NCBI GenBank assembly: GCA_016342445.1
Contig: JAEIOF010000001.1
Location: 6,777 to 70,776, forward strand
Reading direction: 5' to 3'
DNA length: 64,000 bases
Origin: Verrucomicrobiota bacterium
GTDB lineage: Bacteria > Verrucomicrobiota > Kiritimatiellia > Kiritimatiellales > Tichowtungiaceae
Part shown: positions 1,001 to 62,376 of the stretch, in pieces
Layout of the letters: every line of letters begins with the position of its first letter
How positions within the stretch are numbered: the first letter of the stretch is position 1
Notes under the pieces: model-generated
Databases searched by the model: none
Told to the model about the DNA's origin: nothing
What the model saw: the letters and a program-made list of their open reading frames with translations, nothing else
Program-made: the position numbers and the translations under genes

Positions 1001-3895
1001 ATGAGCAGTTTTGAATTAGTTCGCGAACAGGACATCCCGGAAGTCAACGGCACGGTGAAAACCTACCGCCACAAACCGACCGGTGCCGAGTATATTTCCG
1101 TCGAAAACGGCGACACCAACAAGGTGTTCGGTATCACCTTCCGCACCCCACCGTCCGACTCGACTGGCGTGGCCCACATCCTCGAACACTCCGTCCTGTG
1201 CGGCTCGCGCAAATACCCGCTCAAAGACCCCTTCGTCCAGCTTCTGAAAGGATCCCTGCAGACCTTTCTCAACGCAATGACCTACCCCGACAAAACGGTC
1301 TACCCCGTCGCCAGCGAGAACGAGCAGGACTTCTACAACCTTGTCGACGTCTACCTCGACGCCGTTTTCTTCCCGCGCATCACCCCCGCCTTCTTCCGTC
1401 AGGAAGGCTGGCACTACGAGCTCGAAAACATCGACGCCCCGCTCACCTGCAAAGGCGTCGTCTATAACGAAATGAAAGGCGTCTACTCATCCCCCGACAG
1501 CCTCCTGCTCGAACGCTCCCAGCAGGCGCTCTTCCCCGACATCACCTACGGCCTCGACTCCGGCGGCAACCCCGCCGAAATCCCGAACCTCACCTACGAC
1601 GCCTTCCGAACCTTCCACGAAACCTATTATCACCCATCCAACGCCCGCATCTTCTTCTACGGCGACGACGACCCCGCCCACCGCCTCAAAATCCTCGAGG
1701 GATATCTCGACGGCTTCCAATGTTTGGAAAATCCTCCGGATTCCTCCATCCCGCTTCAGACCCCTTTCGAAAAACCGATCGAAATCGAAGAGCCCTACGC
1801 CGTCAGCGAAGAAGACGGGAACGCCTTCATCACCGTCAACTGGGCTCTCCCCGACGGCATCCTCCACTTCGCCCTCATCATCCTAGACCAGATCCTCACC
1901 GGCACCTCCGGGTCGCCATTGCGCAAAGCCCTCATCGAATCCGACCTCGGCGAAGACCTCGCCGGCTTCGGCCTCGAAACCAACCTGCGCCAGCCCGCCT
2001 GGTCCATCGGCATGAAAGGCGTCGACGTTCCAAACCTTGGAAAAGTGGAAGGGATTATTTTCCAAACCTTGGAAAAACTGGTCAAAGACGGCATCGACCG
2101 AAACGACATCGAAGCCGCCCTCAACAGCTTCGAATTCGACCTGCGCGAAAACAACAGCGGATCCTGTCCGCAGGGCCTTTCCATCATGCTCAACATGATG
2201 GAAACATGGCTCTATGGGTGGAATCCTCTCGGCCTCGTCGCCTACGAACACCCGCTCGCCGAGCTCAAAAGCAAAATTTCCGAAAACCCCCGCTACTTCG
2301 AAGAGCTCATCCAAACCGCCCTGCTCGACAACACGCACCGCGCCACCATCAAGCTCGTCCCCGACGCCGACAAAGCCGCGCGCGACGAAGCGGAAGAACA
2401 AGCCCGCCTGCAGGCCGTCCGCGACCGGATGATCCCGGATGAGCTTCAGCAAACCGTCAACACCGCCGCGCGTCTGCTCGACATGCAGCAGACGCCCGAC
2501 TCGCCCGAAGCCGTCAAAACCCTGCCCCTGCTCAAACGCAGCGACCTCGACCCCAAAAGCCGAATCATCCCGCGCGAAACCGAAACCTTCGACAACGCCA
2601 CCGTCCTGTTCCACGACCTCTTCACCAGCGGCATCGTCTACCTCGACATTGGCTTCGACCTCCACACGCTCGACGCCGACGACCTCCCGTGGGTCTCCCT
2701 GCTCGGAAGCATGCTGCTCGAAATGGGCACGCAAAAAGAGGACTTCGCCTCGCTCGCCCTGCGCATCGCCCGTAAAACCGGCGGCCTCTACGCCACCCCC
2801 TTCCACGCGGCGCTCGAAAACAGCCCCGAAAGTGTCTGCCGCCTCTTCCTGCGCGGCAAATGCATGAACCACCAGCTGACCGACCTCTTCGACATCCTCG
2901 ACGACATCCTCTTCGCCCCCGCCTTCAACAACCGCAAACGCTTCCGGGAAGTCCTGCTCGAACAAAAAGCCGAAATGGAAAGCGGACTCATCCCCAGCGG
3001 ACACTCCGCCGTCCTCACGCGCATCAAAGCGCACGGACACGAAGCCGCCCGCGCCGCTGAAGCCATCAGCGGCATCGACGCGCTCTTCTTCCACCGCGAC
3101 ATGCAGAAGAAAATGAAAGAGGACTGGCCCGGCACCGTGGCGCGGATCGAAACCATCCTGCAAAAACTGCTCCGCGGCGGACTGATCGTCAACATCACCG
3201 CCGAAGGGAAAGACCGCGCGCCGATTTTCCAAACCCTGGAAAAATTCCTCGCAAAAGTTCCAAGCATTGGAAAATCCGGAGAAAAAAGTTCCAAAGGTTG
3301 GAAGTTTTCGGAAACACCGTCGAAATCTGAAGCGCTACTGATTCCCTCGCGCGTCAACTATGTCGGCCGCGGCATCAACCTGTTCGACAACGGCTATAAA
3401 ATGGACGGCTCGGCGCTGGTCATCACCAAATACCTGCGCACCGCGTGGCTCTGGGAAAAAATCCGAGTACAGGGCGGTGCCTATGGCGCGGTCTGCTCCT
3501 TCGATGCGCACTGCGGGTCGTTCGCCTTCGCCTCCTACCGCGACCCCAACCTCGCCGTCACCCTCGACGTCTACGGACAGACCGCCGACTTCCTGAAAAA
3601 TCTCACGCTCGACGAAGACGAACTCTCCCGCGCGCTCATCGGAACCATCGGTTCTATCGACGCCTACCTGCTTCCCGATGCCAAAGGCTACACCGATATG
3701 GTTCGCTACCTGGCCGGCATGACGGATGAAAAACGGCAGATGCGCCGCGATGAAGTGCTCTCGACCACCGCCGAAGATTTCAAGGAGTTCGCCGAATTCC
3801 TCAACATGGGCAACGCCGTCACCTCCGTCCTCGCCTCGCCCGAAGCGATCAAAGAAAGCGGACTGGAATTCCAAAGCACCTTGCGGGTTTTATAA
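1001..3895 (+). CDS. M16C family zinc metallopeptidase (PreP / presequence-protease-like)
   Basis: 964-aa ORF. It has the inverted zincin motif HILEH inside HILEHSVLCGSRKYPLKDPF and a length typical of M16C PreP-type enzymes. It carries six in-frame copies of the TTCCAA-N3-TTGGAA palindrome. Confidence 0.9.
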   Translation: MSSFELVREQDIPEVNGTVKTYRHKPTGAEYISVENGDTNKVFGITFRTPPSDSTGVAHILEHSVLCGSRKYPLKDPFVQLLKGSLQTFLNAMTYPDKTVYPVASENEQDFYNLVDVYLDAVFFPRITPAFFRQEGWHYELENIDAPLTCKGVVYNEMKGVYSSPDSLLLERSQQALFPDITYGLDSGGNPAEIPNLTYDAFRTFHETYYHPSNARIFFYGDDDPAHRLKILEGYLDGFQCLENPPDSSIPLQTPFEKPIEIEEPYAVSEEDGNAFITVNWALPDGILHFALIILDQILTGTSGSPLRKALIESDLGEDLAGFGLETNLRQPAWSIGMKGVDVPNLGKVEGIIFQTLEKLVKDGIDRNDIEAALNSFEFDLRENNSGSCPQGLSIMLNMMETWLYGWNPLGLVAYEHPLAELKSKISENPRYFEELIQTALLDNTHRATIKLVPDADKAARDEAEEQARLQAVRDRMIPDELQQTVNTAARLLDMQQTPDSPEAVKTLPLLKRSDLDPKSRIIPRETETFDNATVLFHDLFTSGIVYLDIGFDLHTLDADDLPWVSLLGSMLLEMGTQKEDFASLALRIARKTGGLYATPFHAALENSPESVCRLFLRGKCMNHQLTDLFDILDDILFAPAFNNRKRFREVLLEQKAEMESGLIPSGHSAVLTRIKAHGHEAARAAEAISGIDALFFHRDMQKKMKEDWPGTVARIETILQKLLRGGLIVNITAEGKDRAPIFQTLEKFLAKVPSIGKSGEKSSKGWKFSETPSKSEALLIPSRVNYVGRGINLFDNGYKMDGSALVITKYLRTAWLWEKIRVQGGAYGAVCSFDAHCGSFAFASYRDPNLAVTLDVYGQTADFLKNLTLDEDELSRALIGTIGSIDAYLLPDAKGYTDMVRYLAGMTDEKRQMRRDEVLSTTAEDFKEFAEFLNMGNAVTSVLASPEAIKESGLEFQSTLRVL
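1715..1729. repeat. TTCCAA-N3-TTGGAA iterated palindrome, 1 copy (in the M16 peptidase, read as FQCLE)
   Basis: TTCCAATGTTTGGAA read directly. Confidence 0.95.
2028..2074. repeat. iterated palindrome, 2 copies 32 bp apart (M16 peptidase: VPNLGK..FQTLEK)
   Basis: TTCCAAACCTTGGAA at 2028-2042 and at 2060-2074. Confidence 0.95.
3227..3303. repeat. iterated palindrome, phased array of 3 copies with a 31-bp period (M16 peptidase: FQTLEK..VPSIGK..SKGWK)
   Basis: TTCCAAACCCTGGAA at 3227, TTCCAAGCATTGGAA at 3258 and TTCCAAAGGTTGGAA at 3289. Confidence 0.95.
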
Positions 3896-4286: not shown

Positions 4287-5017
4287 TTAAAGCCCAACGG
4301 CTTTGCGGAGCTTGTCAACTTCCCACGGATCGAGGTTGCGGTGTTCGCCGGAACGGAGTTTTTCGAGGCGGAGCGGACCGACCGATACACGAACGAGCCG
4401 AACCACTTTACAGTCGAGCACCTCCATCATCCGGCGAATGTGGCGGTTTTTTCCCTCGCCGAGCGTCAGGGTGTAACCGGGCTGATTGACAAGAATGCGG
4501 CGAAGCGGCTCCACCTTAAGTGCTTTCAGCTTTTCGCCGCGCGAGTTGAGCCCGTTGAGCATGCGGTCGATCTCGGACGGAGTCAGTTCGCGGTCGATCC
4601 AGACCTGATATTTTTTTCAACGTGATGGCGGGGATGCATCAATCGGTGAGCGAGCTCGCCGTCGTTGGTGACAAGCAACAACCCTTCACTCATTACGTCA
4701 AGACGGCCGACGGTGTAGAGGCGGCTGGCGCAGGCGGGAAGCAAATCGAGGACGGTTTCACGTCCTTCGGGATCTTCGGAGGTACAGATGACGCCGGTCG
4801 GCTTGTTGAGCATGATCCAGACCTTTTCGTCCAGCACAACCGGCGTCCCCTCGCAGGTGACGCGGCTTTTGCCGGGCTCCACCTTGGTGCCGAGTTCCGT
4901 GATGACCACGCCATCCACGGTCACCAGTCCGTCCGTAATGAGCTTTTCCGAAGCGCGGCGAGAAGCCACCCCGCACTCAGCCAGATATTTTTGTAATCGG
5001 ATCATAACAATGCTCAA
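4287..5017 (-). pseudogene. rluB: RluB/RsuA-family 23S rRNA pseudouridine synthase interrupted by a frameshift in an A7 run
   Basis: ORF 4583..5017 has the S4 domain and the catalytic motif VGRLDVMSEGLLLVTNDG. ORF 4287..4562 is the C-terminal half of the same family. The two frames join if the A7 run (T7 on the plus strand, 4611-4617) were A8: ..HPRHHVEKKYQVWIDRELTPSEIDRMLNGL.. Confidence 0.8.
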
Positions 5018-5354: not shown

Positions 5355-7394
5355 CTAACGATTCTTCTTCATCTTGCGCCCTGTATACAAAATCTTTTTC
5401 TTTTCAGGCTCGAATTCCGGAATTGAAATGGTGGATTTGAGTTCGTAGAGCTCGTCGCGAAGGATGGCGGCGCGCTCAAACTCCAGTTTTTCGGCCGCTT
5501 CGAGCATTTCCTGCTCAACTTCGCGAATCGCCCGGTTCAGATCATAGGTTTCGCCGGTTTCGCGGACCACAAGCTCTTCCAGCTCTTCGGCCCCCTTCTT
5601 CATCGCCTGCAAACTGTCCTGAATTTTCGACCGGATTGCCTGCGGGGTGACGCCATGCGCCTCGTTATAGGCGATCTGATTTTCACGGCGATGGCGGGTC
5701 ACGTCCATCATCCGCCGCATCGAGTCGGTTATACGATCTGCATAGAGAATCACCCGTCCGCCCAGATGGCGGGCGGCGCGGCCTGCGGTTTGTACCAGCG
5801 AAGTTTCCGAGCGCAAAAAGCCCTCTTTGTCCGCATCGAGAATGGCAACCAATGACACCTCCGGCAAATCAAGCCCTTCGCGAAGCAGGTTAATGCCGAT
5901 TAAACAATCGAACTCCCCCAGCCGCAGGTCGCGCAGAATATCGACCCGCTCCAGAGCCCCGATATCGGAATGGAGATACTGCACACGCAATCCAACCTTC
6001 TTCAGGTAATCAGTCAAATCCTCGGCGGTGCGCTTGGTGAGCGTGGTCACCAGCGTCCGCTCACCCTGCTCGGCACAGGCACGAATCTCCTCCATCACGT
6101 CGTCAATCTGCCCGGTGAGCGGACGGACATCAACCGGCGGGTCGATGATGCCGGTCGGGCGAATAATCTGCTCAATCGGCGCGCCGCCCTCCTGCCGTTC
6201 GAAGGCGCCGGGCGTGGCGGTGGTAAAGATCATCGGGCCGGTGATGTTGAGGAACTCGTCAAACGCCAGCGGACGATTATCGAGTGCCGACGGCAGACGA
6301 AAGCCGTGCTCGATCAGGGTTCCTTTGCGGGCCTGATCGCCGTTAAACATGCCGCGCACTTGCGGAAGCGTCACATGCGACTCATCGACGATGGTGAGAA
6401 AATTTTCGGGGAAGTAGTCGATCAGGCAGGCGGGCCGCTCGCCCGCTTCGCGGGCGCCGAGATGGCGGGAGTAGTTTTCAATGCCACCGCAATAGCCGAT
6501 CTCGCGCATCATTTCGATGTCGTACATCGTCCGCATCCGGATGCGCTGGGCTTCGATCAGCTTGTCGTGATCTTCAAACCACTGAATCCGCTCTTTCAGC
6601 TCGGCCTCGATGCGGGCGATGGCCGGTTCAAGTTTTTCAGCCGGCATCACAAAATGCTTGGCGGGCGAAATCATGATCCGGTCGAGCACGTCCTCGACAT
6701 CCGCCGTCAGCGCGTCAATTCGTTTGATCGACTCCACCTCGTCGCCGAAAAAAGCAATGCGGATGCCGTGGGTCGCATAGGATGGAAACACATCGACGGT
6801 GTCGCCGCGCACGCGGAACGTTCCGGGCGTCGTGTCGTAATCGTTACGCTCATATTGAATCGCCACCAGCTTTTCGAGCATCGCGTCGCGCCCGCACTCC
6901 TCGCCGACATGAGCGGAAAAAACCATCTCGCGGTAATCCTCCGGCGAGCCGAGGCCGTAGATGCAGGAGACCGATGCGACGATGATCACATCGTCGCGGC
7001 TGAGCAGGCTGTCGGTTGCCGCCAGCCGCAGACGCTCAATCTCGGCGTTAATGGAGGCGTCCTTCTCAATAAACGTGTCGGTCTGCGGGATATAGGCTTC
7101 AGGCTGATAATAGTCGTAATAGCTGATAAAAAACTCGACCGCGTTGTGGGGGAAAAAGGATTTCAGCTCCGAGTAGAGCTGGGCGGCGAGCGTTTTATTG
7201 TGGGAGATCACCAGCGCGGGCTTTCCCTGCTTCGCAATCACATTGGCGATGGTGAACGTCTTGCCTGAGCCGGTCACCCCTTCCAATGTTTGGAAACGCT
7301 GCCCCGCCTCCAGCCCGGCGCACAGCGCCTCAATCGCCGCCGGCTGGTCACCGGTCGGCTGATAATCTGAAACAAGCTGGAAGGTTGAACTCAT
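5355..7394 (-). CDS. uvrB: excinuclease ABC subunit B
   Basis: 679-aa ORF with Walker [11 protein letters not shown], helicase motifs and a C-terminal UVR domain (..[17 protein letters not shown]). Confidence 0.97.
7281..7295. repeat. iterated palindrome, 1 copy inside uvrB directly upstream of Walker A
   Basis: TTCCAATGTTTGGAA, read on the coding strand as F-Q-T-L-E in [14 protein letters not shown]. Confidence 0.95.
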
Positions 7395-7416
7395 CGCCCA
7401 GCAGATTACCCCGAGT

Positions 7417-7431
7417 TTCCAATGTTTGGAA
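7417..7431. repeat. iterated palindrome, 1 intergenic copy (uvrB-ettA)
   Basis: TTTCCAATGTTTGGAAAAA. Confidence 0.95.
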
Positions 7432-9317: not shown

Positions 9318-9372
9318 TTCCAAACATTGGAACTGACTGCGCCAGGGCTTGCAAATTTTCCAATGTTTGGAA
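9318..9372. repeat. iterated palindrome, 2 intergenic copies downstream of ettA
   Basis: TTCCAAACATTGGAA at 9318 and TTCCAATGTTTGGAA at 9358. Confidence 0.95.
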
Positions 9373-11575: not shown

Positions 11576-11684
11576 TTCCAATGGTTGGAAAAAATTTCAC
11601 CACGAAATACACAAAACACACGAAAGTTTCCAATGCTTGGAAAAAAGTCGAAATATCCAACGTAGTTGGTTCCAACGATTGGAA
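11576..11684. repeat. iterated palindrome, 3 intergenic copies plus one degenerate copy (DUF1456-nuclease divergent region)
   Basis: TTCCAATGGTTGGAA at 11576, TTCCAATGCTTGGAA at 11628 and TTCCAACGATTGGAA at 11670. A degenerate TCCAACGTAGTTGG lies at 11656. Confidence 0.95.
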
Positions 11685-11759
11685 GCAGGCTGAGCCTGCA
11701 CCCTTCTTTTTATCCAAACACTAGCAAATGAGGCGGGTTGCGGTTAAGCTCCCCGGACT

Positions 11760-48763: not shown

Positions 48764-48917
48764 CCGCATTAAAAACAGCAACACCCCACGCGAGGCCACC
48801 GACGGAAAAGACAGCCCTTGGCGCAAATAGACCCCCCTATTGGCGCACAAGTGAAGTTGCATACACTCGTCGCTTCACCATAAAGTGGTAACCAATAGTC
48901 ACAAACAGGAGAACCGA

Positions 48918-50948: not shown

Positions 50949-51023
50949 AAACCCGCTTCACATCCAGACTACCCGACAAGCCCGTCTGCAACTTTTCAGA
51001 ATCCTATCTGAATCCTGAACATG

Positions 51024-52417: not shown

Positions 52418-52418
52418 G

Positions 52419-55400
52419 CTAATCCCCTAAAACTGAAACAGTAAAATCTTTATACCGCGCGGACTTCATCCACATGTGGCGCAGGCCGATACGGCCTTCG
52501 GTTACTTCACCGATCAGCGGCGACTGCCAGGCAAAGAGCTTTTCCTGTCCGTCGCCCGCCACATTGAAGAACAACCGGCTGCCTTTTTTGATGGCCGTAA
52601 TGTGATAGGTCTTACCCGTGCGGAACAGTCCGGTGCGGAATGAGTCAGGTTTGATTTCGGTTTTGGAAAATTCACCGTCATCCGCTTTGGGATAGCGGCG
52701 GCAACGGACATAGTCGTCGTCCGGCCCGTTGTCATCCGCGCCGTAAGCGGCATAGCTGATATGCAGAAGCTTCATGGTTTCGAAATAGTTTTTCATCCAC
52801 GGTTCTTTGCGGACCTCCGCCCAGTCCATGATATCGGGAGCAAACTCGCCGCCCTTGCCGGTAGCTTCGATGTAGAGAATGTTCACCCACTTATTGATGT
52901 CATCGAGCCGGGTATATTCATACTCGATTTTCAGGTCGCCCTGAAACGAATCCTTCGTCCACAGCACGGCATGGTGCGCGTGGTTCCACTCCTCGGAGCC
53001 GGCCGAAAACTCCAGACCGTCCGCAATGTCGGTAATCCTGGCGAACTCGCCGTCGAGTTTCCAATCCTTGGAACTTTTTCCGGAGAACACCGGCTTCCAG
53101 TTAAGGGCTTTTGCCGCTTCAAACAACGCCTGATCTTCGCCCATCTCTAATTCAACCTCCATTGATGCGCCATCCTTGCATTTCACCGTCAGCAGCGTCG
53201 AATCGCCTGCGGCTTCCGTCCAGGCCGGCGCGGAACCTTTAATTTTCCACAGCCCCTTCAGCCGCAGCGTCACCGAGGCCTCTTTGGACGGACCGTTAAA
53301 GTGCCCCTTCACCGGATCCTCTTCCTGATTGAGGTCGGGATTTGCCACCGACACCTTCAGCAAATCAGCCTCCTGGATCATCACATAGCAAGGGACTGAA
53401 ATCGACTCCAGCAATCCCTCCTTCAACCCGCCGGCTTCGAAACAGGCATAGGCCGTTGTGGACTCCCACTCCACCACGTGCGCCTGATTATCCTGTCGGC
53501 GAATTGAAAACGGTGTGTCCCGAGGTGCCGACGTTCCAACCATTGGAAAAACCACATAGGCATACGAGGCGTTTTTCGAAGCGGCACCGTGGTCGATCCA
53601 GGCTTTGGCAAACAGGCCGGACGCGTCGGCCTTCGCGCCTTTTTTACCTTCGCCTTTGCGCAGCGAATATTTGTTATTGGGCGACGACTGCTCCCCGACG
53701 GTAATGACCGGCTCCGCGCCGTCGAGAATCTTATAGCCGTTACCGATCGGGTCGAACAGCCAATCGCCCTCGCGCCGCACCGCTCCATCGATTGGCTTAA
53801 TGCTGTTCTGAAACAGCGTGGTATGCACCGGGGCGGACGGATCGTCTGATTCAATTCCGGAACCGAGGCAGAGAATCTGTTCACCGAAACAGAAGACCGA
53901 TTTACGGGCTTTCAATTTCCCGGGGAACGACATTTTCTCCTTCACGGGATCGATAGTGAAGCCGTCGCCTTCATTGAGCTTCATAGCCCACACCCCGTTG
54001 CCGTCGAGCGAACAGCCGCCAGCGTAGGATTCCTCGGACTTGAACATAACCAGCGGCGCCTCGGGTTCGAGCTCGGCGAACGGCCGCTCAATGGTGGTCG
54101 CGCCCGGCGGATGGTTCCAATCCCAGCCGTCCTCGGTATAGCCAGCCTCCTTTTGGGACAGATTCGGCAGGACCTGAACGACGCCGCTGGACTGATAACG
54201 TCCGTAGCGGTTGTCGAGATTGTAGATTTCCGAGGCCCAGACATACTTGCTATAGCCCTTGATATTCACCGACCAGTCGGCGCGGCGATGAACCGAAAGC
54301 GCGGCGTAAGGAAAGGTCCAGTGACCGTTCGGCGGCTCGGTGTTGAGGTTGCATGTTGCGAACAACGCTTTCGCGACTTGATCGTTTGGAACGCCCCACA
54401 AACGCTGGTACGCTGCGGCCACCTCGGCATCCAGCGGTTCGGCCCCATCAGGGGTTCCGCTCAGAGCGAGTTTAAGATAGGCCTCGCCCAGAGATTTAAT
54501 GGAGCCGCCCAGCGGATGGCGCCCGGCCTGACCCAGGCCGTAACAGAACGGATTACTGTAAAGGGTGGCGGCCAGCATCGCCTTTTTAAAATTGGAATGC
54601 CCGGCCTCATCAATCCGGAAAGATGTTCCGGAAAGCGCATAGAACGTAATCGGGATTCGATCGAAGGCGCCGGTTGCATAAGCCGGATAGTGTCCCCAGT
54701 GATGCCACGCGGTGCCGTCCGGCTTAAACCCGCCGGTGCTGTCTGTCAGAGCCAGTGAATATGAAAGATGAGCCGAATACGCTTTCAGAAGAGCAGACTG
54801 ACGGCCCGGATCGGCCGGAAGCAGCGCGACCATCAGGCGGAACGCCGATTGGGTGTTGTAATAATCGAGGTTGGCCTCGAACGTCTCCTGCGGCATCAGC
54901 ATTTCACCGCAATCGAGCATCCAGAGCGTGGTATCGCCGATATCGTCCAACAGCCCTTCCTCGGCCAGAACCTCTTTCATCAGAAAAAAAGAGGTCATCA
55001 ATTCCCGCAACTGATATCCGAAATGATGCATTGTGCCGAGCGAACTTCCGGCACACCAGCCCTGATCCAGAACATAATGGCAAGCCGCGGCATATACCCG
55101 GCCCAGTTCCGCACGGGCAGACAGATCAACGGTTGACCGATACTCGTTGGCCAGCTGAAGCATCCGTATTCCGAAAGGTCGGACGACGATATACTCCGGC
55201 TTATCGTCCAGCCCCAACTCGTAACGAACCGGAGAAACCTGCACGTCCAGCCGCAGCGGAACAGGGGAAAAGCCGACGGCTCCGTCTTCCGCCAGAATTC
55301 CATCATCCACCAGTTTGCTACGGTACCAGTCCGCGCCGAAAAGCTGTTTGGATTTTTTGAAATACTCGTCAATCAGCCGGAGCCGGATGGTTTCCAGCTC

Positions 55401-56057
55401 TTTGAAAACCAGCGGGGTAACCGGATCCGGCGTCACCGCCGCGATCCGTTTCCAATGGTCCAGCTTCGGCATCCAGTGATCCCAAACGCCGGCACCCCCG
55501 TTTTTTATAAACGGAACCTGCAGGTCGGGATAAGCATGACGGTCATCAATATACTGCGAGAAAACCAGATCATCGATCCACAGCGCCCCCGCCGTCTCCG
55601 GCGCAATCAACCGAGCCGAATGAACATCGTACGGGCTTCCGGCCTCCGGAACGTCCCCCTGCATTTCATAAAACGGAACCCATACCGTTCGCCAGCCCTT
55701 GAAGTTCAGCTGCAGATCAAAGTGCACCGTCCCGTTAAATTCGATGCGCAAGACCTCCTCTGCCGGAGCCTCATTATAAAGCGACATCACGAACGTTGGA
55801 CTGACCGGAAATTGAGCGCCGTACTTTGCCCCGCTCTCCTCCGGCGAGAGCGAGCCAATATTCGACACGGTTAAAATTCCGCCGCCCCATTTCAACGACT
55901 TCGAACCGAACTGCGCGCGGTCTGCCACGACCGCGAATCCGGTTCCTGAAAAATGAGCCAGATCGGAATCCTTTTCGAAAGAAGTTCCACCCAGCGGAAC
56001 CTCCGCACGGCATGCCATCACGGACATCAACAGCAGAATCATATGTGTCGACTTCAT
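52419..56057 (-). CDS. polysaccharide lyase family 8 (chondroitinase ABC-like) fused to a C-terminal concanavalin-like domain (DUF1961-like)
   Basis: 1212-aa ORF with a signal peptide. The central region contains GWDWNHPPGATTIERP, the W.W..(P)G.TT pattern of PL8 lyases. The last ~230 aa form a separate beta-sandwich-like domain. Confidence 0.65.
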   Translation of the reverse strand: MKSTHMILLLMSVMACRAEVPLGGTSFEKDSDLAHFSGTGFAVVADRAQFGSKSLKWGGGILTVSNIGSLSPEESGAKYGAQFPVSPTFVMSLYNEAPAEEVLRIEFNGTVHFDLQLNFKGWRTVWVPFYEMQGDVPEAGSPYDVHSARLIAPETAGALWIDDLVFSQYIDDRHAYPDLQVPFIKNGGAGVWDHWMPKLDHWKRIAAVTPDPVTPLVFKELETIRLRLIDEYFKKSKQLFGADWYRSKLVDDGILAEDGAVGFSPVPLRLDVQVSPVRYELGLDDKPEYIVVRPFGIRMLQLANEYRSTVDLSARAELGRVYAAACHYVLDQGWCAGSSLGTMHHFGYQLRELMTSFFLMKEVLAEEGLLDDIGDTTLWMLDCGEMLMPQETFEANLDYYNTQSAFRLMVALLPADPGRQSALLKAYSAHLSYSLALTDSTGGFKPDGTAWHHWGHYPAYATGAFDRIPITFYALSGTSFRIDEAGHSNFKKAMLAATLYSNPFCYGLGQAGRHPLGGSIKSLGEAYLKLALSGTPDGAEPLDAEVAAAYQRLWGVPNDQVAKALFATCNLNTEPPNGHWTFPYAALSVHRRADWSVNIKGYSKYVWASEIYNLDNRYGRYQSSGVVQVLPNLSQKEAGYTEDGWDWNHPPGATTIERPFAELEPEAPLVMFKSEESYAGGCSLDGNGVWAMKLNEGDGFTIDPVKEKMSFPGKLKARKSVFCFGEQILCLGSGIESDDPSAPVHTTLFQNSIKPIDGAVRREGDWLFDPIGNGYKILDGAEPVITVGEQSSPNNKYSLRKGEGKKGAKADASGLFAKAWIDHGAASKNASYAYVVFPMVGTSAPRDTPFSIRRQDNQAHVVEWESTTAYACFEAGGLKEGLLESISVPCYVMIQEADLLKVSVANPDLNQEEDPVKGHFNGPSKEASVTLRLKGLWKIKGSAPAWTEAAGDSTLLTVKCKDGASMEVELEMGEDQALFEAAKALNWKPVFSGKSSKDWKLDGEFARITDIADGLEFSAGSEEWNHAHHAVLWTKDSFQGDLKIEYEYTRLDDINKWVNILYIEATGKGGEFAPDIMDWAEVRKEPWMKNYFETMKLLHISYAAYGADDNGPDDDYVRCRRYPKADDGEFSKTEIKPDSFRTGLFRTGKTYHITAIKKGSRLFFNVAGDGQEKLFAWQSPLIGEVTEGRIGLRHMWMKSARYKDFTVSVLGD
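53059..53073. repeat. iterated palindrome, 1 copy in the PL8 lyase gene
   Basis: TTCCAATCCTTGGAA. Confidence 0.95.
53534..53548. repeat. iterated palindrome, 1 copy in the PL8 lyase gene
   Basis: TTCCAACCATTGGAA. Confidence 0.95.
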
Positions 56058-56071
56058 TCGTTATCCTTTTC

Positions 56072-57745
56072 TCATTTCTTATTCACCTTATACGGGCGGT
56101 CTCGGTGCGCATGCGTCTCGCACATCATCTTCAGCAATTCTCCTTGAACCGCCCCATCGGCAGTATAGCTGCTCGGATTTTCCTTAAGCCACGATGGCCC
56201 GACATCCTTGAACTCCAGCGGACGGGCCACCTCCTCCAAACCGTCCAGATCAATGGCCGGCGATTTAGATAGCGTTTTGATCTTTCCATCCACCAGAGCA
56301 TTCGGATCGACCGGCAGATGTGAATCGACCTCGAACGAGACCGATCGGCGGCACACGGCAACGAACTCGGCGGACGGCATCGGTAGTCCGCCCTCGCCGA
56401 CCACCAACTCAAACTCGCGCACGTCGTTGCCCGTCACGGACGCCCCGTCGAGGGGATGCTTTCGCTGGATATTATCCGTCCATTGCTGCAGAGCCATGGC
56501 CTCGTGATTCTCCACAAACGCCCACGGTTTATAGGATGGATCGAGTGTGGCCACAACATTACCGACAAACCGGTTTCCGGTCGGCAGCAGCTCGCGTTCA
56601 TCCACCGCTTTGGCGGCATCGGCCCGGCGCTCAAGCAGCGCGGTCAAATCGGCCACGGAGCCCTTTTTGCCCAGAACGATATTGTTGGCGATCAGGTTGC
56701 GATCTGCGCGCGCATGCGATGAGCCAGCAACGCCGGCGTTGAGATACAGACAGGCTTCACCGCGATCCTTAAGGGTGCGCGGCAAATAGAAATAGTTTCC
56801 GACGACCGCGTGATCGCTGCCCCAGATAAACATGCCGCCGTAGCCAAAGAGTTCGTCGGTGCCGAGGAAATAGTTGTGGATCGCATACTGCCGGTCGCCA
56901 TGGCGAAAGTTCAGGGTGCCCTGGCAATTCTTGAAGGTGTTCGCGTAGAAGATGTTTTCGCGGGATTTGCTGGTGATGATCTCCGCCTCGCTGTCATGGC
57001 GCTCGAACAGGTTGTGGTCGACGAGACTACGGCCGGTATCATTGCGCCAGGTACCAATGCGGATGCCGCCGCCGGCATTTCCTGTTTTTGGAGGATTGCT
57101 GAAATAGCAGTGGTCGACGCGGTGGTACATCGGCGGAGCGCCCTCTGCGCCGTCAACCTTCTTGTAGGTCGACTCCCACAACTTACGGTCGCAGTTGTTG
57201 AGGTTGATCACCTGATCGAAGGTGGGCTTGTCGGTAAAGCTGCAATGGTCGATCCGTACGAATTCGGGAACCTTTCCGCTCGCGGGGGGCGTAACCGTGA
57301 TCCATCCGCCGTCGGCGGTATCGAACCGATGGAACGCGCATTCGGTGATGCGCACATGGCTACTGTAGACGGTTACCAGCCCGGGACCGTGCGAGCCCCA
57401 TTCGTCCGGATCTCGATCGCCATCCTTAAAATAGAAGCCGGCCAATATTACATGCTCGCCATGTATAGAAACCGAGGAATCCCCGGAAATGATCGCCTGT
57501 CCGGGATTGAGCGCGCGAATAATGATCGGCTGCCCTTCGCGGCCCGACGCCGTGATCTCCAGCTCAACATTGCGATAAACGCCATCAGCCACCGCAATCA
57601 CCTGCCCGGCTCTTGCCTTGCGAACTGCCGACTCAAGCTCTCCAACCGACTTAACCACCACCGGTTGCGCGGCATGAGCCGACATCGCTCCGATCAGAAC
57701 GAGAGCAAGCAACAGCCTAGCTATATATTTTCCATTCATAATCAT
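56072..57745 (-). CDS. polysaccharide lyase family 6 (chondroitinase B / alginate lyase-like right-handed beta-helix)
   Basis: 557-aa ORF with a signal peptide (..LIGAMSAHAAQP). The N-terminal pattern ..LESAVRKARAGQVIAVADGVYRNVELEITASGREGQPIIIRALNPGQAIISG..IHGEHVILAGFYFKDG is typical of PL6. Confidence 0.6.
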   Translation of the reverse strand: MIMNGKYIARLLLALVLIGAMSAHAAQPVVVKSVGELESAVRKARAGQVIAVADGVYRNVELEITASGREGQPIIIRALNPGQAIISGDSSVSIHGEHVILAGFYFKDGDRDPDEWGSHGPGLVTVYSSHVRITECAFHRFDTADGGWITVTPPASGKVPEFVRIDHCSFTDKPTFDQVINLNNCDRKLWESTYKKVDGAEGAPPMYHRVDHCYFSNPPKTGNAGGGIRIGTWRNDTGRSLVDHNLFERHDSEAEIITSKSRENIFYANTFKNCQGTLNFRHGDRQYAIHNYFLGTDELFGYGGMFIWGSDHAVVGNYFYLPRTLKDRGEACLYLNAGVAGSSHARADRNLIANNIVLGKKGSVADLTALLERRADAAKAVDERELLPTGNRFVGNVVATLDPSYKPWAFVENHEAMALQQWTDNIQRKHPLDGASVTGNDVREFELVVGEGGLPMPSAEFVAVCRRSVSFEVDSHLPVDPNALVDGKIKTLSKSPAIDLDGLEEVARPLEFKDVGPSWLKENPSSYTADGAVQGELLKMMCETHAHRDRPYKVNKK

Positions 57746-59499
57746 CCGTTTTCCGGCACGAGCCGGAGTTCAATTAGATTCAGGGTGCGATTCTCTTCGA
57801 GGTCTTCGCAGAGCGGATCTGCCGCTTCGAAGACCGGCATTGCCGTAACACTTATTTCCACGTCATAGACGCCCGGCTCGAGGAAACAGGTCGTGCCGAG
57901 ATGACTGATGGTTTCGGGATGATATTTGGACTGGATATTTTCGAGTACGACATCCGGCATCAACGCGGCCGTTATCGACTCGCCATTCACCGTGATCTCC
58001 ACCTGAACGCCCGCAATCCATTCGTGACTCCAGTGGCGATTGGTCAGGGCGTCGATGCGATACCGGCCCGACTGCGACATCCCGAATTTCCACCGGAGCG
58101 ACCCGCTACCTTCGTGGAAGCTGATGGGCAGCCCCTTGCGATCGACGGATAAACGGCTCCCGTTCACACGATGAACCTTGGCATTCCCGGTAAGCAGCGA
58201 AACGGTTCCGTCCTCCGCCTGCACCAGTTCCTGTTCGGCGGCAGGAATGCCCGCCAGCTCGAGGCGAACCACAGAAAAGAAGGAATCCGGCGCGTGCTCC
58301 GGAAGGTTGTCCAGCTGGAGGCTGTTTTTTACCCTGTCCCCCTCATCCCATTCCTGTTCCTTTTTCACCTTTCGTCCGGGCTCCGCAAGAACCGTCGCTT
58401 CCACCACCTGGTTTTTCAGCCCCTGAAGCCGGAAAGAAGAACCCGGCCACTTGGAAAAAATGAGATAAAGAAAATGATCCTTCACCGTCATCATGCCCCA
58501 CGGAAACGGATTGGGAAACGGCGCGGCCCCCGCTCCATAAATGGCTTCCCCGTTGGTGCGCATCCATCGCCCCATAGCCTGCAACCGCTCCACGCTTTCG
58601 GACGGAACAGTTCCGTCCGCCTTCGGACCGATGTTGAGCAGGTAGTTGCAGCCGTTGGAAGCGGATCGAATCAGAGAATAGAGCAGCTGATCGACGCTTT
58701 TCCAATTGTAGTCGGTACGTTTATATCCCCACGAATGGTTCATCGTTGCCGGCACTTCGCCATCCATATTCCGGCTGCAATAGGGAAACTCGTTGTCCCC
58801 GAGCACGGCGTAGTCGCCATACCCGTTTCCAACACGATCGCAGACGAGACACCCCGGTTGCCGACGGTGCACCAGCTCCGCAAAGGCCCGGCTCTGCGCC
58901 GGGGTGGAGTCCACGGCAGTATCGTACCAAACCAGTCCGATCGGACCGTATTCGGTCAGCAGCTCCTTCATCTGAGGAATGCACTTTTCTTCCATGCACC
59001 GGTTGAAATCAACCTCCCGCTCATCAACGGGAACCGGATGCTGGTTCGCCCACTCATTCCACGATCCATCCGGGTGGTGCCAGTCCTGCCGCTGTGAATA
59101 GTAGATGCAGAATTTGATCCCGGCTGCTTCACAGGCCGCTGCCAGCTCTTGAACGATGTCCCGTCCGAACGGCGTGGCATCAACGATATTGAATGGATCA
59201 ACATCCGACTTGAACAGGGCAAACCCGTCGTGGTGCTTGGCGGTAATGACGAGATATTTCATCCCGGCATCGACCGCAAGCTGCACAACCGCATCGGCAT
59301 CAAACTTTATCGGATTGAATTCAGCCGCCAGCTTTTCATATTCGCTCATGGGGATTTCGGCGAAACGCAAAATCTGCTCGCCGATGCCCGGAACTTCACG
59401 ACCTTTCCAAATTCCCGCAGGGATGGAATAAAGCCCCCAATGGATAAAGAGCCCGAAGCGCGCCTCGCGCCACCAATTCAATTTGTCGGCGGCTTTCAT
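57742..59499 (-). CDS. alpha-L-fucosidase, GH29 family, without a signal peptide
   Basis: WWREARFGLFIHWGLYS and HHDGFALF signatures. The ATG at 59499 forms an ATGA overlap with the upstream sulfatase stop. The tracked start at 59562 would overlap that gene by 67 nt. Confidence 0.85.
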   Translation of the reverse strand: MKAADKLNWWREARFGLFIHWGLYSIPAGIWKGREVPGIGEQILRFAEIPMSEYEKLAAEFNPIKFDADAVVQLAVDAGMKYLVITAKHHDGFALFKSDVDPFNIVDATPFGRDIVQELAAACEAAGIKFCIYYSQRQDWHHPDGSWNEWANQHPVPVDEREVDFNRCMEEKCIPQMKELLTEYGPIGLVWYDTAVDSTPAQSRAFAELVHRRQPGCLVCDRVGNGYGDYAVLGDNEFPYCSRNMDGEVPATMNHSWGYKRTDYNWKSVDQLLYSLIRSASNGCNYLLNIGPKADGTVPSESVERLQAMGRWMRTNGEAIYGAGAAPFPNPFPWGMMTVKDHFLYLIFSKWPGSSFRLQGLKNQVVEATVLAEPGRKVKKEQEWDEGDRVKNSLQLDNLPEHAPDSFFSVVRLELAGIPAAEQELVQAEDGTVSLLTGNAKVHRVNGSRLSVDRKGLPISFHEGSGSLRWKFGMSQSGRYRIDALTNRHWSHEWIAGVQVEITVNGESITAALMPDVVLENIQSKYHPETISHLGTTCFLEPGVYDVEISVTAMPVFEAADPLCEDLEENRTLNLIELRLVPENG

Positions 59500-60971
59500 T
59501 TCACCAGTCGCTGGTACTCTTCCAGACTCCAAACAAGCGGTTTTTCCAGACGGGAAGCCCATGCTTTATAATCACTGCGCAAGGATTCAACCACATCGGT
59601 CTGAATCGAAGAGACTTCGCTTCGCTCACCAGGATCGGCGGACACATCGAACAGCTCCACATGGCCGGTCACCTCGTTACAGCGCAGCAGCCATTGATCC
59701 TTCTGTACAGCCCATGAGGCGTCGCCCACCTTGAGCGGACTGGTCGGCGCGTCGTCGGTGCGCTCGGTGACATATTCCCAGTAGTCGCGCCAGAACTCCT
59801 TGTTGTCCTCGCTCCAGTGCATAATTTCCGGCCCGGCCCAATAAAGCGCCTCGTGCGAATCTTCCTTTTTCCCAAGCATTGGAAAAATATCCGCCCCGTC
59901 CAGATTGCCCGGCAACTTGATGCCGGCGGCGACCAGCGCGGTCGGCAACACATCGATCGAGGCGACTCGCGGATCAAATTTTGACGGGGTCAGCCCGGCG
60001 GGCCAGTGCGCAACCATCGGCACATGCATGCCCCCCTGATGAAAGTTGCCCTTGTTGCCGCGGAACGGCCCGTTCATCGGTTGCGGCGAATCGATCACCG
60101 CGCCGTTATCGCTGAGGTAGAAAATCAGTGTGTTTTCAAGCAGCCCCTTCTCCTCCAGCGTGGAAACGATTTTCCCGAGGCCGTCATCAACGGCAGCAAG
60201 AGTGGCGTAGTAGTTATCCACTTCCGGGTTGCCCGTATTGAACCGCTGATAGGTTGATGGCGCGGGATCTTCGAGCGGGATGTGCGGCGCGCTGTAGGCC
60301 AGATAAACAAAGAACGGATCGTTGCCGGACTCTTCAATGAACCGAAGCGCATCGTCGGTGAACTCATCGGTGGCGTAACCCGTAGCCTTCACGTTTTCCA
60401 GACCTCGGAAAAGGCTGGGCGAATCGTAATAGGTGGTGCCGGACGTGTTGAAGCCGAAATAGTGATCAAAGCCGCGATTAATCGGATTGTGCTCGGGGAT
60501 ACAACCGATGGTGGCGTTTTTGTGATAGTCGTGCGTCTGCACCGGAAGCGGTTTTTTCGTGGTTTTGCCGAGATGCCACTTGCCGATCATCGCCGTGCGA
60601 TAACCCGCCTTCTGGAACAGTTCGGAAAGCATGGTTTCCGAAAGAGGAACCCCGGCTTTAGAGAGGTCGCAGTTATCATAGACGCCGAAACGCTGCTGGT
60701 AGCGGCCGGTCATCAACGCGGCGCGCGACGGGCCGCACACCGGCGAGGTGACGTGCGCATTCATGAAGGTGACACCGTTGTCCGCCAGTTTCTGCAGATT
60801 GGGCATTGCAGCCTTCGCCGCCGCCCTGGCTTTCTGCCGATCGCACTTATAGCGCTCCGTATTTTGGGTCAGAAACAGCATTTCATCCGGATAGGCATCC
60901 GAATAAACGGGCAGTTGCCCGAAGCCCTGGTCATCGACCAGCACCACGATCACATTGGGGGCATCATCCAT
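59496..60971 (-). CDS. sulfatase (S1 family, Cys-type formylglycine motif), without a signal peptide
   Basis: PNVIVVLVDDQGFG and SPVCGPSRAALMTGRY (C-x-P-x-R). The start is probably ATG 60971 (MDDAPNVIV..). The tracked start at 60998 overlaps the upstream gene. Confidence 0.9.
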   Translation of the reverse strand: MDDAPNVIVVLVDDQGFGQLPVYSDAYPDEMLFLTQNTERYKCDRQKARAAAKAAMPNLQKLADNGVTFMNAHVTSPVCGPSRAALMTGRYQQRFGVYDNCDLSKAGVPLSETMLSELFQKAGYRTAMIGKWHLGKTTKKPLPVQTHDYHKNATIGCIPEHNPINRGFDHYFGFNTSGTTYYDSPSLFRGLENVKATGYATDEFTDDALRFIEESGNDPFFVYLAYSAPHIPLEDPAPSTYQRFNTGNPEVDNYYATLAAVDDGLGKIVSTLEEKGLLENTLIFYLSDNGAVIDSPQPMNGPFRGNKGNFHQGGMHVPMVAHWPAGLTPSKFDPRVASIDVLPTALVAAGIKLPGNLDGADIFPMLGKKEDSHEALYWAGPEIMHWSEDNKEFWRDYWEYVTERTDDAPTSPLKVGDASWAVQKDQWLLRCNEVTGHVELFDVSADPGERSEVSSIQTDVVESLRSDYKAWASRLEKPLVWSLEEYQRLVK

Positions 60972-62376
60972 ATCCGTTCCCTTTCGCATCTTCTTCACAG
61001 CGGTTCAACAGTTCAACCAGCTCGGACTGCACCCCTTCGGCCTCCGGTAAGTTCCAAACATTGGAAAAATCGGCAGGCCCCGAATCGAGGCGGTAGAGTT
61101 CGTGCACCTGCGTGCCGTCCTCGTTGCGGAAGCGAATCAGCTTCCAGTCGTCGCGCGCCACCATCGTCCAGGGATATTGCTCGCTGTAGGTCACATTGTC
61201 CCACGCATCCAACTGCACGTCATCGATCAACGGCACAAGCGAGCGCGATGCGGTTTGCGGCGCTTCGACCCCGGCGCGTTCGAGCAGCGTGGCATAGAGG
61301 TCGAGGTTGTTGACCAGCTTGCGGCACGTGCCGGCCCCCTTGGCGGGATCGGCCACAAACAGCGGAACACGCACTGAATTTTCGTACATCGTACTTTTGA
61401 AAAAGAGTCCGAACTGCCCGGCATGATCGCCATGGTCGGAAGTGAAAACCACGATCGTGTTGTCGGCCAGCCCCTGCGCATCCAGCTCGTCGAGGATGCG
61501 GCCGATGCCGTGGTCGATCATAGAAATCTGGCCGTAGTAGGCGGCGAGCGCCTCGCGGTATTGCCGCCCGGTCAACCCTTTTTTAAAAATCGGACTGCTG
61601 TCCTTCTTTTCGGCGGCCAGCGGCTTGTCGCCGGTTTCCGTGTAAAACTCCGGCGGCAGCTCCATCTCGTCCGGAGAGTACATCGAGGCCCACGGTTCCG
61701 GCGGCATCATCGGCTGGTGCGGCCCGAAGTAGGAGGTGAACATGAAAAACGGGCGGTCATGTTTTTTGCGCAGAAAGTCGAGGGTGCGCTCGGTGACCCA
61801 GCTGTTGGAATGCTCCTTCTCGGAACGCCAGTTCGAACCCATGATGAAACGGAACGGGTCGGTTTCCAAACACGCTTCATCGGCGTTAAACTGCGCAATC
61901 ACCTTCTGAATGTCGCCGCCATAACTCTTGTCGGCCAGCCACTGCACATACTCGGAGTTGAGCGGCTCGTCCTCGCGGTACACGTTGTATCCGGCGTCGT
62001 GCAGATGCTTTTCCTCGAAGCCGTGCGCAACTTCAATCGGCGCGAGGTGCAGCTTGCCCGCCATCGCGGTTTCATACCCCGCGCGGCGCAGGGCCTCCGG
62101 CAAAAGCAACGTGCCATCGCGGTGCGGCATATAATTTTTGGTGACCCCGCTCGCCGCCGGATAAAGTCCGCAGAATATCGAAGCCCGCGACGGGCCGCAA
62201 ACCGGACTGGCGCAATAGGCTCGCGTAAAGTTGACGCCCCGCTCCGCGATGCGGTCCATGTTCGGGGTTTTAACGACGGGGTGTCCGAGGCAGCTGAGCG
62301 TTTCCGCCTGCTGCTGATCCGTCATGATGAATAAAATGTTGGGGCGTTCCGGCGGCGCGGTCTTTTCATTGTCCAT
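60964..62376 (-). CDS. sulfatase (S1 family, Cys-type formylglycine motif), without a signal peptide
   Basis: PNILFIMTDQQ and SPVCGPSRASIFCGLY. ATG 62376 (MDNEKTAPPERPNILF) is preferred over the tracked TTG at 62427. Confidence 0.9.
   Translation of the reverse strand: MDNEKTAPPERPNILFIMTDQQQAETLSCLGHPVVKTPNMDRIAERGVNFTRAYCASPVCGPSRASIFCGLYPAASGVTKNYMPHRDGTLLLPEALRRAGYETAMAGKLHLAPIEVAHGFEEKHLHDAGYNVYREDEPLNSEYVQWLADKSYGGDIQKVIAQFNADEACLETDPFRFIMGSNWRSEKEHSNSWVTERTLDFLRKKHDRPFFMFTSYFGPHQPMMPPEPWASMYSPDEMELPPEFYTETGDKPLAAEKKDSSPIFKKGLTGRQYREALAAYYGQISMIDHGIGRILDELDAQGLADNTIVVFTSDHGDHAGQFGLFFKSTMYENSVRVPLFVADPAKGAGTCRKLVNNLDLYATLLERAGVEAPQTASRSLVPLIDDVQLDAWDNVTYSEQYPWTMVARDDWKLIRFRNEDGTQVHELYRLDSGPADFSNVWNLPEAEGVQSELVELLNRCEEDAKGNGYG
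61052..61066. repeat. iterated palindrome, 1 copy in the sulfatase gene 3' end
   Basis: TTCCAAACATTGGAA. A related 16-nt variant, TTCCCAAGCATTGGAA, lies at 59869-59884 in the other sulfatase gene. Confidence 0.95.

Follow-up and report, generated by a model that had tools for sequence, protein, structure and literature searches.

An interrupted palindrome iterated at helical-turn spacing in genomes of Kiritimatiellota, a candidate recognition site for a dimeric DNA-binding protein

We analyzed a 64,000-nucleotide stretch of DNA from a Verrucomicrobiota bacterium (GenBank assembly GCA_016342445.1, contig JAEIOF010000001.1, positions 6,777 to 70,776; hereafter, the window), which carries many copies of a 15-bp interrupted palindrome, TTCCAA-N3-TTGGAA (TTCCAANNNTTGGAA), in intergenic DNA and inside conserved genes. 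The motif is constrained as DNA, its genic copies were built by point substitution, and neighboring copies lie whole turns of the double helix apart. We propose, at a probability of about one half, that the motif is recognized by a lineage-specific dimeric protein of two-fold symmetry, which would bind double-stranded DNA cooperatively on one face of the helix.

A pattern search found exactly 29 perfect copies in the window, a density of ∼0.45 per kb (∼1 per 2 kb), whereas dinucleotide-preserving shuffles averaged 0.01 copies and reached at most 1. When up to 2 mismatches were allowed, 52 sites were present in the window versus 3.25 expected. Since the motif is A+T rich and the window has a G+C content of 53 to 58%, composition makes the palindrome even less likely. 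The motif had been noticed in an earlier inspection of the letters by a model, made without database searches (the sequence-only reading), and all 29 of the perfect start coordinates given there proved exact. That reading also gave 14 one-off variants, 12 of which are true one-mismatch sites; the other two, at 31962 and 38149, are symmetric TTCCAG...CTGGAA double variants, and a one-mismatch site at 59870 was absent from the list. The same sequence is found in the independent assemblies L001, L002, L128, L129, and L131 and the motif in at least 46 others, which rules out an assembly artifact, a concern raised in the earlier inspection. The window sequence is also contained within the 165-kb metagenomic contig ENA ERZ24794672 NODE_32.

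The form of the motif in the window is strict. The spacer is 3 bp, with no other length occurring, and is centered on a G or C (S) in 28 of the 29 copies of the window and in 379 of the 383 from other genomes. TTCCAA is the sole enriched 6-N3-6 palindrome in the window. Once full sites were masked, isolated half-sites occurred at the Markov expectation (observed/expected ratio, 1.0 to 1.2), so the unit is the whole dyad. The arms had been described as usually extended outward; T-rich 5′ and A-rich 3′ flanks are indeed real and give the trend TTTTCCAA-NSN-TTGGAAAA, but the extension is partial, with T at −1 in 15 of 29 copies and A at +1 in 21 of 29. Every copy contains CCA-N5-TGG, as had been stated and as can be read directly from the sequence. 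A hairpin formed by the arms would have a stem worth only −3 to −5 kcal/mol, the arms are invariant in sequence with no covarying alternative stems, and the motif gave no match in searches for RNA families (Rfam) or tRNA-related elements (ARAGORN). Thus, it is the sequence that would be recognized and not a structure. Consensus scanning of the intergenic copies for sigma-70 promoters and intrinsic terminators yielded nothing above shuffles, and the 31-bp unit formed by closely spaced copies fits, by eye, no sigma-70, sigma-54, or extracytoplasmic function (ECF) geometry. A second repeat, GGCTGAGCC, adjoins two motif sites; it has 2 copies only and is not significant.

Genic copies use all three reading frames and produce the recurrent peptides FQxLE, (F/V)PxxGK, and S(N/K)xWK, as the sequence-only reading had reported. 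All 16 FQxLE pentapeptides in the window proteins are encoded by TTC-CA(A/G)-NNN-(T/C)TG-GAA, with no TTT, no GAG, and no CTN codon other than CTG, in a window where the codon usage is 0.56 for TTC, 0.20 for CAA, 0.14 for TTG, and 0.57 for GAA. Synonymous resampling with the proteins held fixed predicted 0.39 perfect coding copies versus 23 observed. The invariant codon choice and this resampling rule out a motif driven by the peptides. Furthermore, six HemW orthologs with 74 to 84% amino acid identity have a third-position identity of only 0.51 to 0.64, and codons for the same residue were identical in 80% of the comparisons inside the motif arms versus 56% outside. Together, these results establish that the recurrent peptides arise as a side effect of the DNA motif and are not themselves a selected protein motif, and that the constrained object is the DNA sequence, neither the peptide nor a hairpin.

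Copies inside genes could have been inserted in frame, as are the Rickettsia palindromic elements (RPEs) that the sequence-only reading had named as analogues, or could have arisen by substitution. Alignment of the host proteins with orthologs, which that reading had suggested for telling the two apart, points to substitution in both PreP and HemW. The PreP/M16 peptidase of the window aligns with Arabidopsis PreP1 (PDB 2FGE; E = 5e-286) without a gap at the single perfect copy at 1715 to 1729 (codon 239, FQCLE) and at the two perfect copies 32 bp apart at 2028 to 2074 (codons 343 to 358, VPNLGK and FQTLEK), which face eenvqkveelimdtlkk in 2FGE. The triple at 3227 to 3303 (codons 743 to 768), made of a one-mismatch copy at 3227 and perfect copies at 3258 and 3289, each 31 bp from the next and together using all three frames, comes with only 4 extra residues relative to PreP1. 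The Pfam M16_C domain of PreP is aligned end to end through motif copies, and the radical-SAM domain of HemW places 166 residues on 166 profile positions through several copies. In a multiple alignment of HemW with orthologs down to 34% identity, FQxLE replaces sequences such as DALDRE or PALERL with no gap, and the three HemW pairs (31, 22, and 31 bp apart) entail no length change. Since length is unchanged relative to distant orthologs, the genic copies are substitutions and not in-frame insertions; the HemW and PreP alignments rule out RPE-type insertion, and the selfish mini-element once listed among the candidate roles fails on the same ground. We conclude that sites arise and persist by point substitution where proteins tolerate them.

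Neighboring copies are in helical register. The 22 adjacent distances of up to 160 bp in the window were 22, 31 (seven times), 32 (twice), 40, 41, 42 (twice), 52, 74, 84, 93, 102, 134, 136, and 147 bp, and all of them fall within ∼0.2 turn of a multiple of 10.4 bp. The preferred spacing is 31 to 32 bp, or 3 turns. When the 29- to 33-bp class was excluded, the vector strength R in the window was still 0.80 (n = 13; permutation P = 0.00035, taken after scanning periods from 9.5 to 11.5 bp; R = 0.80 to 0.87). The same period was found in other genomes, with an R of 0.80 for 161 pairs from at least 117 loci; these loci were chosen by a 29- to 33-bp spacing, and R was calculated from the pairs outside that class. 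Phased clusters occur inside genes, namely, the PreP triple, the three HemW pairs, a murD pair, and a four-copy array in a gene adjacent to glmM. As these intragenic clusters were made by substitution, tandem duplication cannot explain their register, and the spacing between sites must itself be favored or constrained. The helical-turn spacing and the S-centered spacer are features that the sequence-only reading had not seen. By the usual criteria for clustered regularly interspaced short palindromic repeats (CRISPR), i.e., repeats of at least 23 bp, unique spacers of at least 26 bp, noncoding location, and cas genes, the clusters are not a CRISPR array: the 31-bp period consists of a 15- to 19-bp repeat and a 12- to 16-bp spacer, copies lie in genes, and there are no cas genes.

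The motif is widespread in one clade. When one genome per species (GTDB) was scanned for copies 29 to 33 bp apart, motif pairs were found in at least 117 loci from at least 46 assemblies, with G+C contents of 49 to 73%. Among the matches listed, the labels were Kiritimatiellae, Kiritimatiellales, Kiritimatiellia, Pontiella, and generic "Verrucomicrobia," "Lentisphaerae," and "Spartobacteria" metagenome-assembled genomes (MAGs), and the samples came from lakes, sediments, rumen, and marine sources. In these motif-selected loci, the density was 0.25 to 1.1 per kb. The window UvrB shares 81% identity with its counterpart in the cultured species Tichowtungia aerotolerans and 79% with those of Pontiellaceae MAGs, which places the organism in the phylum Kiritimatiellota. 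In 22 kb of the complete T. aerotolerans genome, 3 copies are perfect and 4 have one mismatch, and a 2.2-Mb contig whose UvrB is 76% identical carries the motif as well. The motif further occurs in the locus L042, where the proteins of the division and cell wall (dcw) cluster are only 42 to 61% identical to those of the window, and it thus spans a deep divergence. No site with up to 1 mismatch was found in 22 kb of L213 (ENA ERZ24794648 NODE_2, from the same study), with a UvrB 73% identical, and no copy was found in 440 kb around hemW homologs of other taxa. Seven IMG/VR "viral" contigs (L003 to L009) carry phased pairs or arrays. Lineages differ in dialect at the center triplet: one MAG has TSA almost throughout (78 of 79 copies), yielding a 7-1-7 palindrome (TTCCAAT-S-ATTGGAA), other lineages favor GSC, and the window favors ACA or TGT.

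Sites are also kept at orthologous positions. The six HemW orthologs share sites at aligned positions, with variable center triplets and some gain and loss. In the window hemW gene, a perfect pair 31 bp apart lies at 32783 to 32828 (codons 24 to 39), with a site at ortholog nucleotide ∼102 in 6 of 6 orthologs; a pair 22 bp (2 turns) apart lies at 32668 to 32704 (codons 66 to 77); a one-mismatch copy at 32534 to 32548 (codon 118, in the radical-SAM domain) is perfect at the same position in L132 to L134; and a pair 31 bp apart at 31931 to 31976 (codons 309 to 323), made of a perfect copy at 31931 and the symmetric variant at 31962, is shared with L132, L134, and L136. Two perfect copies 136 bp (13 turns) apart, at 7281 to 7431, mark uvrB: the one at 7281 is in codon 34, and the one at 7417 is 23 bp upstream of the start, in the divergent spacer between uvrB and an ABC-F gene. 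Both are common to T. aerotolerans, where they lie at codon 34 and at −36 and are 135 bp apart. At the murE-murF junction, a perfect pair 41 bp apart (18633 to 18688) occupies codons 11 to 29 of murF in the window, and L042 has a 32-bp pair in the intergenic spacer. An array lies just upstream of the pyrE start in two assemblies. As a separate observation, a small gene divergent from uvrB in T. aerotolerans (CP047593, L212, 9508 to 9822) shows a faint match to a prepilin-type N-methylation domain, and the conserved motif copy sits in that shared spacer; a link to pilus-mediated DNA binding is speculative.

In other genomes, arrays of 4 to 6 perfect copies were present among the matches listed, with either a period of 31 to 32 bp or a recurrent layout of 0/22/53/84/114/136, and they occupy the promoters or leaders of housekeeping genes. 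Where starts were recognizable, arrays stood directly upstream of purM, alaS, cysS, degT, pyrE, lysA-like, and signal-peptide protein genes; others followed immediately after a stop codon (thrC) or lay between a stop codon and a terminator (phage contig). The last case is a four-copy array at 650 to 767 of L007, a contig classed as viral, and the terminator is canonical. Clusters in the other loci had the same frame on both sides in ∼7% of cases versus 40% for random positions, according to a GC3-periodicity classifier whose result is qualitative, as it is poorly calibrated at 56% G+C and called only 26% of random window positions intragenic. This suggests that pairs in other genomes are mostly at gene boundaries. 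In one rumen MAG, a gene for a Schlafen-AlbA_2/HATPase_c_4/winged-helix protein (L025, 1141 to 2634) is immediately upstream of a six-copy array; this arrangement is not recurrent.

A strict dyad with a fixed spacer, recognized as a whole unit and by sequence instead of structure, flanked by A/T tracts and phased at 2 to 14 turns on the same face, points to a dimeric protein that binds duplex DNA, and the lineage dialects fit coevolution with a recognition protein. Among the four roles considered in the sequence-only reading (a site for a dimeric DNA-binding or nucleoid protein, an uptake or recombination signal, a methylation-linked motif, and a selfish mini-element), the first is the best supported, owing to the dyad, the whole-unit recognition, and the phasing. 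Such a protein would recognize the form (TTT)TTCCAA-NSN-TTGGAA(AAA) and would probably be abundant. Dimers at neighboring sites would touch along one face of the helix, a contact that would produce clusters at whole-turn spacing with 3 turns preferred. Its likeliest role would be that of a nucleoid-associated or global architectural regulator, which may seed the assembly of higher-order complexes, both on promoter or leader arrays and on many of the intragenic clusters. We infer its existence, symmetry, cooperativity, and cellular role from the form and arrangement of the sites. Somewhat more tentatively, we suggest that Kiritimatiellota may possess a previously undescribed genome-wide DNA-protein system in which an abundant dimer occupies phased palindrome clusters. 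If so, thousands of copies of the palindrome would have been written into the chromosome, some of them within the coding sequence of essential genes, leaving a proteome-wide footprint of FQxLE, SNxWK, and PxxGK peptides. Such a system would represent a new chromosome-organizing or "self-marking" code, with sites arranged like those of operator arrays yet as abundant as uptake sequences.

Several observations weigh against such a binder. A density of ∼0.45 per kb is 10 to 100 times that of the sites of ParB (parS), Noc (NBS), MatP (matS), and SlmA (SBS) and fits uptake sequences better. Coding and noncoding DNA of the window carry the motif roughly in proportion to their length, which is the expectation of neutral drive limited by protein constraint alone, and most intragenic clusters have no obvious regulatory logic. 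All-versus-all clustering of the open reading frames (ORFs) within 500 bp of clusters in the 117 listed loci revealed no family in more than 3 loci, and Pfam annotation of the array-flanking genes returned unrelated functions and no candidate binder gene. No family recurs beside the arrays, and no binder gene emerged from this "guilt by adjacency." Finally, a cooperative uptake receptor acting as the binder would also generate phasing.

Indeed, a DNA uptake or "self-DNA" signal, like the uptake signal sequences (USS) and DNA uptake sequences (DUS) of other bacteria and as proposed for highly iterated palindrome 1 (HIP1) of cyanobacteria, could account for much of the above. A surface or periplasmic receptor would prefer DNA that bears the motif, and homologous recombination after uptake would act as a molecular drive by which new copies spread in the population at any place that proteins tolerate. 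The abundance of ∼1 per 2 kb is within the range of USS and DUS, and the same explanation accommodates substitution-built copies in permissive protein segments in all frames, the near-proportional density in coding and noncoding DNA, the clade-restricted and patchy distribution with dialects, and the positions kept among orthologs. Two secretins are encoded in the window, a motif-free 12-kb block (39.7 to 51.9 kb) could be recently acquired DNA, and a recent preprint makes the case that HIP1 is an uptake sequence (bioRxiv 10.64898/2026.06.24.733823). Uptake explains abundance, density, substitution, dialects, and patchy phylogeny equally well, but it does not by itself predict palindromy or phasing: known uptake sequences are asymmetric and not in helical register, whereas here we find a strict dyad, phasing over 2 to 15 turns, and arrays of 4 to 6 copies. 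In addition, the literature searched contained no report of natural competence for Kiritimatiellota, and the window secretins have no recognizable pil or com context. We regard an uptake signal as the main rival, although an unlikely one; the two explanations are compatible if the protein that binds cooperatively is itself the uptake receptor.

The remaining explanations appear weaker still. A methyltransferase, either orphan or from a restriction-modification (R-M) system, or a sequence-specific mismatch repair activity might recognize the palindrome, which would then persist through biased repair or because methylation-dependent functions are under selection. This would suit a palindromic, hyperabundant motif conserved within ORFs, as reported for HIP1, and one that contains CCA-N5-TGG; its S-centered interrupted form also resembles recognition sites of the R-M type. 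However, 12 to 13 specified bases are, to our knowledge, far beyond the targets of methyltransferases or of very-short-patch repair, the helical-turn spacing and the arrays are left unexplained, and the only methyltransferases beside window sites are the housekeeping RsmH and TlyA, so that we consider this explanation improbable. An inverted repeat could alternatively act as a nucleic acid hairpin, that is, as an RNA stem-loop of a 5′ leader or 3′ untranslated region, a terminator, or a stability element or as a single-stranded DNA or cruciform target of an HUH or REP-associated tyrosine transposase (RAYT)-type enzyme, like the repetitive extragenic palindromic (REP) sequences and bacterial interspersed mosaic elements (BIMEs). 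T-runs after each copy in some arrays and the location of arrays in leaders or between stop codon and terminator agree with this. It is nevertheless disfavored and, in our view, very improbable, given the weak stem, the invariant arms, the lack of an Rfam match, a 10.4-bp periodicity that is a property of B-DNA and not of RNA, and the intragenic position of most window copies, unlike that of REPs. Least credible of all is a mobile mini-element in frame, analogous to RPEs or to miniature inverted-repeat transposable elements (MITEs), or a tandem-repeat expansion. The spacers of neighboring units are similar in some intergenic arrays, which suggests local tandem duplication, but the genic copies show no length change relative to distant orthologs, their flanks are unrelated, their unit is only 15 to 19 bp, and center triplets differ between orthologous copies. 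This explanation is refuted for the genic copies, and local expansion of arrays is the only part of it that is possible.

According to the gene calls of the assembly collection, the window is 93% coding. It contains genes for the PreP/M16 peptidase, uvrB, the dcw cluster, glmM, glmS, hemW, and an amino-sugar operon, as well as two secretin genes and a glycosaminoglycan degradation cluster. Between 36 and 39 of the 42 sites with up to 1 mismatch (∼85 to 90%) are inside called genes, the range being set by a doubtful 69-amino-acid call, and the genic ones use the three frames 16, 11, and 12 times. The earlier figure of only 6 intergenic perfect copies is reached when 11576, 11628, and 11670, which lie inside the doubtful call, are counted as intergenic, while the gene calls alone give 3. 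These six copies are all in spacers that must contain promoters, and none is in the six convergent spacers, a reading of the gene map that rests on small numbers. The earlier list of host genes holds for PreP/M16, uvrB, murF, hemW, the glmM-adjacent gene (368 amino acids), the PL8 lyase, and a sulfatase, but murD carries one-mismatch copies only; the other hosts of perfect copies are a PIG-L deacetylase gene, a 455-amino-acid gene, and a 237-amino-acid gene.

Besides the copy upstream of uvrB, the intergenic copies are a perfect pair 40 bp apart at 9318 to 9372, between the ABC-F gene and a Wzz-like gene, and a perfect triple with spacings of 52 and 42 bp at 11576 to 11684, in the divergent spacer between a DUF1456 gene and a PD-(D/E)XK family gene. 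The triple is followed by a terminator-like hairpin (11685 to 11715), so a short transcript with three motif copies is possible. This GC-rich hairpin, GCAGGCTGAGCCTGC-ACCCT, has a near-identical counterpart, GAGGCTGAGCCTC-CACCCT, at 51990 to 52010, and both adjoin motif copies; with two copies only, the hairpin is not significant alone. One-mismatch copies are found in the PD-(D/E)XK family gene (12211 to 12225), in murF (18088 to 18102; codon 207, FQTLE), in a tlyA/FtsJ-like methyltransferase gene (33562 to 33576), in codon 244 of the PIG-L deacetylase gene (37723 to 37737), and in a sulfatase gene encoding 491 amino acids (59870 to 59884), and a one-mismatch pair (TTCCAA...CTGGAA) 31 bp apart occupies codons 204 to 218 of murD (15639 to 15684). 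Single perfect copies lie in codon 74 of murF (18486 to 18500), in codons 995 (53059 to 53073) and 837 (53534 to 53548) of the PL8 lyase gene, and in codon 437 of a sulfatase gene encoding 470 amino acids (61052 to 61066). The array in the 368-amino-acid gene upstream of glmM (26036 to 26154, codons 268 to 306) consists of perfect copies at 26036, 26067, and 26098 and a one-mismatch copy at 26140, with spacings of 31, 31, and 42 bp. The PIG-L gene also contains a perfect copy at 38075 and the symmetric variant at 38149, 74 bp (7 turns) apart (38075 to 38163); two perfect copies 84 bp (8 turns) apart are in codons 58 and 86 of the 455-amino-acid gene (39561 to 39659); and the 237-amino-acid gene has a perfect copy at 52017 between one-mismatch copies at 51915 and 52049, with spacings of 102 and 32 bp (51915 to 52063).

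The block without any motif copy extends from 39660 to 51914 (12 kb), where ∼5 would be expected. It encodes an AraC regulator, the two secretins in tandem, a 1,216-amino-acid TSP3/NIDO-like protein, a small helix-turn-helix (HTH) protein, and an SSF transporter, and it is either recently acquired DNA or a motif-excluding region. A 657-bp noncoding stretch upstream of mraZ (23816 to 24471) likewise has no motif copy, no Rfam match, and no tRNA. The region from 51024 to 64000 is a polysaccharide utilization-like cluster with two PL8 lyases (1,212 and >1,488 amino acids), a chondroitinase B-like protein, an alpha-L-fucosidase, two sulfatases, and a GDSL esterase, a content that fits the degradation of sulfated or fucosylated glycosaminoglycans. 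Within 4287 to 5005 (around 4614), the window differs from the L001 copy of the same contig by one base in an A-run, which breaks the frame of an S4/RluA pseudouridine synthase in the window copy and is probably a homopolymer error or a variant.

Motifs that are both hyperabundant and clade specific, as are HIP1, USS, and DUS, are rare, and whether they originate by selection or by drive has been argued over for decades. The motif described here is an apparently undescribed example from a little-studied phylum of polysaccharide degraders, and its spacing is quantized in helical turns even where point mutation made the copies, a feature that the classic cases do not have. This spacing constrains the mechanism and implies cooperative protein binding on duplex DNA. 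Cultured carriers include T. aerotolerans, in which the motif is present, and probably Pontiella, judging from a Pontiella sp. MAG. The motif-free related lineage (L213) allows phylogenetic profiling for the binder, and the dialects allow covariation analysis. With its near-zero background in other taxa, the motif could serve as a marker for binning Kiritimatiellota contigs and for linking phages or prophages with hosts from this phylum. The odd peptides that recur in Kiritimatiellota proteomes are likewise explained by the motif.

Full-text literature searches found no published description of the motif or of uptake sequences or iterated palindromes in Kiritimatiellota, in agreement with the earlier opinion that this is not a described element. 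Among known systems, RPEs and REP/BIME sequences are also repeated palindromic DNA, and RPEs occur inside ORFs as well. However, RPEs are 100- to 150-bp insertions that add residues and REPs are extragenic, whereas the motif spans 15 to 19 bp, involves no insertion, and is mostly genic; general Pfam annotation of the window showed no RAYT (tnpA_REP) gene. The parS, NBS, matS, and SBS sites are 12- to 16-bp palindromes, often in genes, that are bound by dimers and serve chromosome organization, and the half-site TnTTCCA loosely resembles those of parS and NBS. Yet there are from a few to ∼100 of them, often confined to certain regions, and their half-sites abut, unlike the ∼0.45 copies per kb and the 3-bp gap of the motif. 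Helically phased operator arrays are known for NtrC at glnAp2, for Fis upstream of rrnB P1, and at Lrp/FFRP (feast/famine regulatory protein) sites. They share with the motif dyads of ∼15 bp placed 2, 3, or 4 turns apart on one face upstream of genes, but operator sites are degenerate, number tens to hundreds per genome, and do not reshape coding sequence, whereas the motif sites are near perfect, an estimated thousands per genome, and mostly intragenic.

The closest analogues, as the sequence-only reading had proposed, are HIP1 and the USS and DUS. HIP1 (GCGATCGC) is a hyperabundant palindrome conserved within and between ORFs, a pattern that implies selection at the DNA level, and the motif shares with it conservation at orthologous positions beyond neutral expectation. 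Nucleoid structure (PMC5861425) and DNA uptake (bioRxiv 10.64898/2026.06.24.733823) have both been proposed as the function of HIP1. It is an uninterrupted 8-mer that overlaps known methyltransferase sites and has a reported periodicity on the 10- to 90-kb scale, whereas the motif has 12 to 13 specified bases, a fixed 3-bp spacer with an S center, and 10.4-bp phasing and belongs to another phylum. The USS of Haemophilus and other Pasteurellaceae and the DUS of Neisseriaceae resemble the motif in occurring at ∼1 copy per 1 to 2 kb, in being clade specific with lineage dialects, in entering all frames through substitution at permissive positions with recurrent peptides, and in being kept at orthologous positions. 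They differ in being asymmetric 9- to 12-mers, whereas the motif is a strict 6-3-6 (often 7-1-7) palindrome with whole-turn spacing and arrays of 4 to 6 copies. Altogether, the motif is a clade-specific hyperabundant genomic motif, apparently undescribed until now, which its interrupted palindrome and its helical-turn spacing set apart from these known systems.

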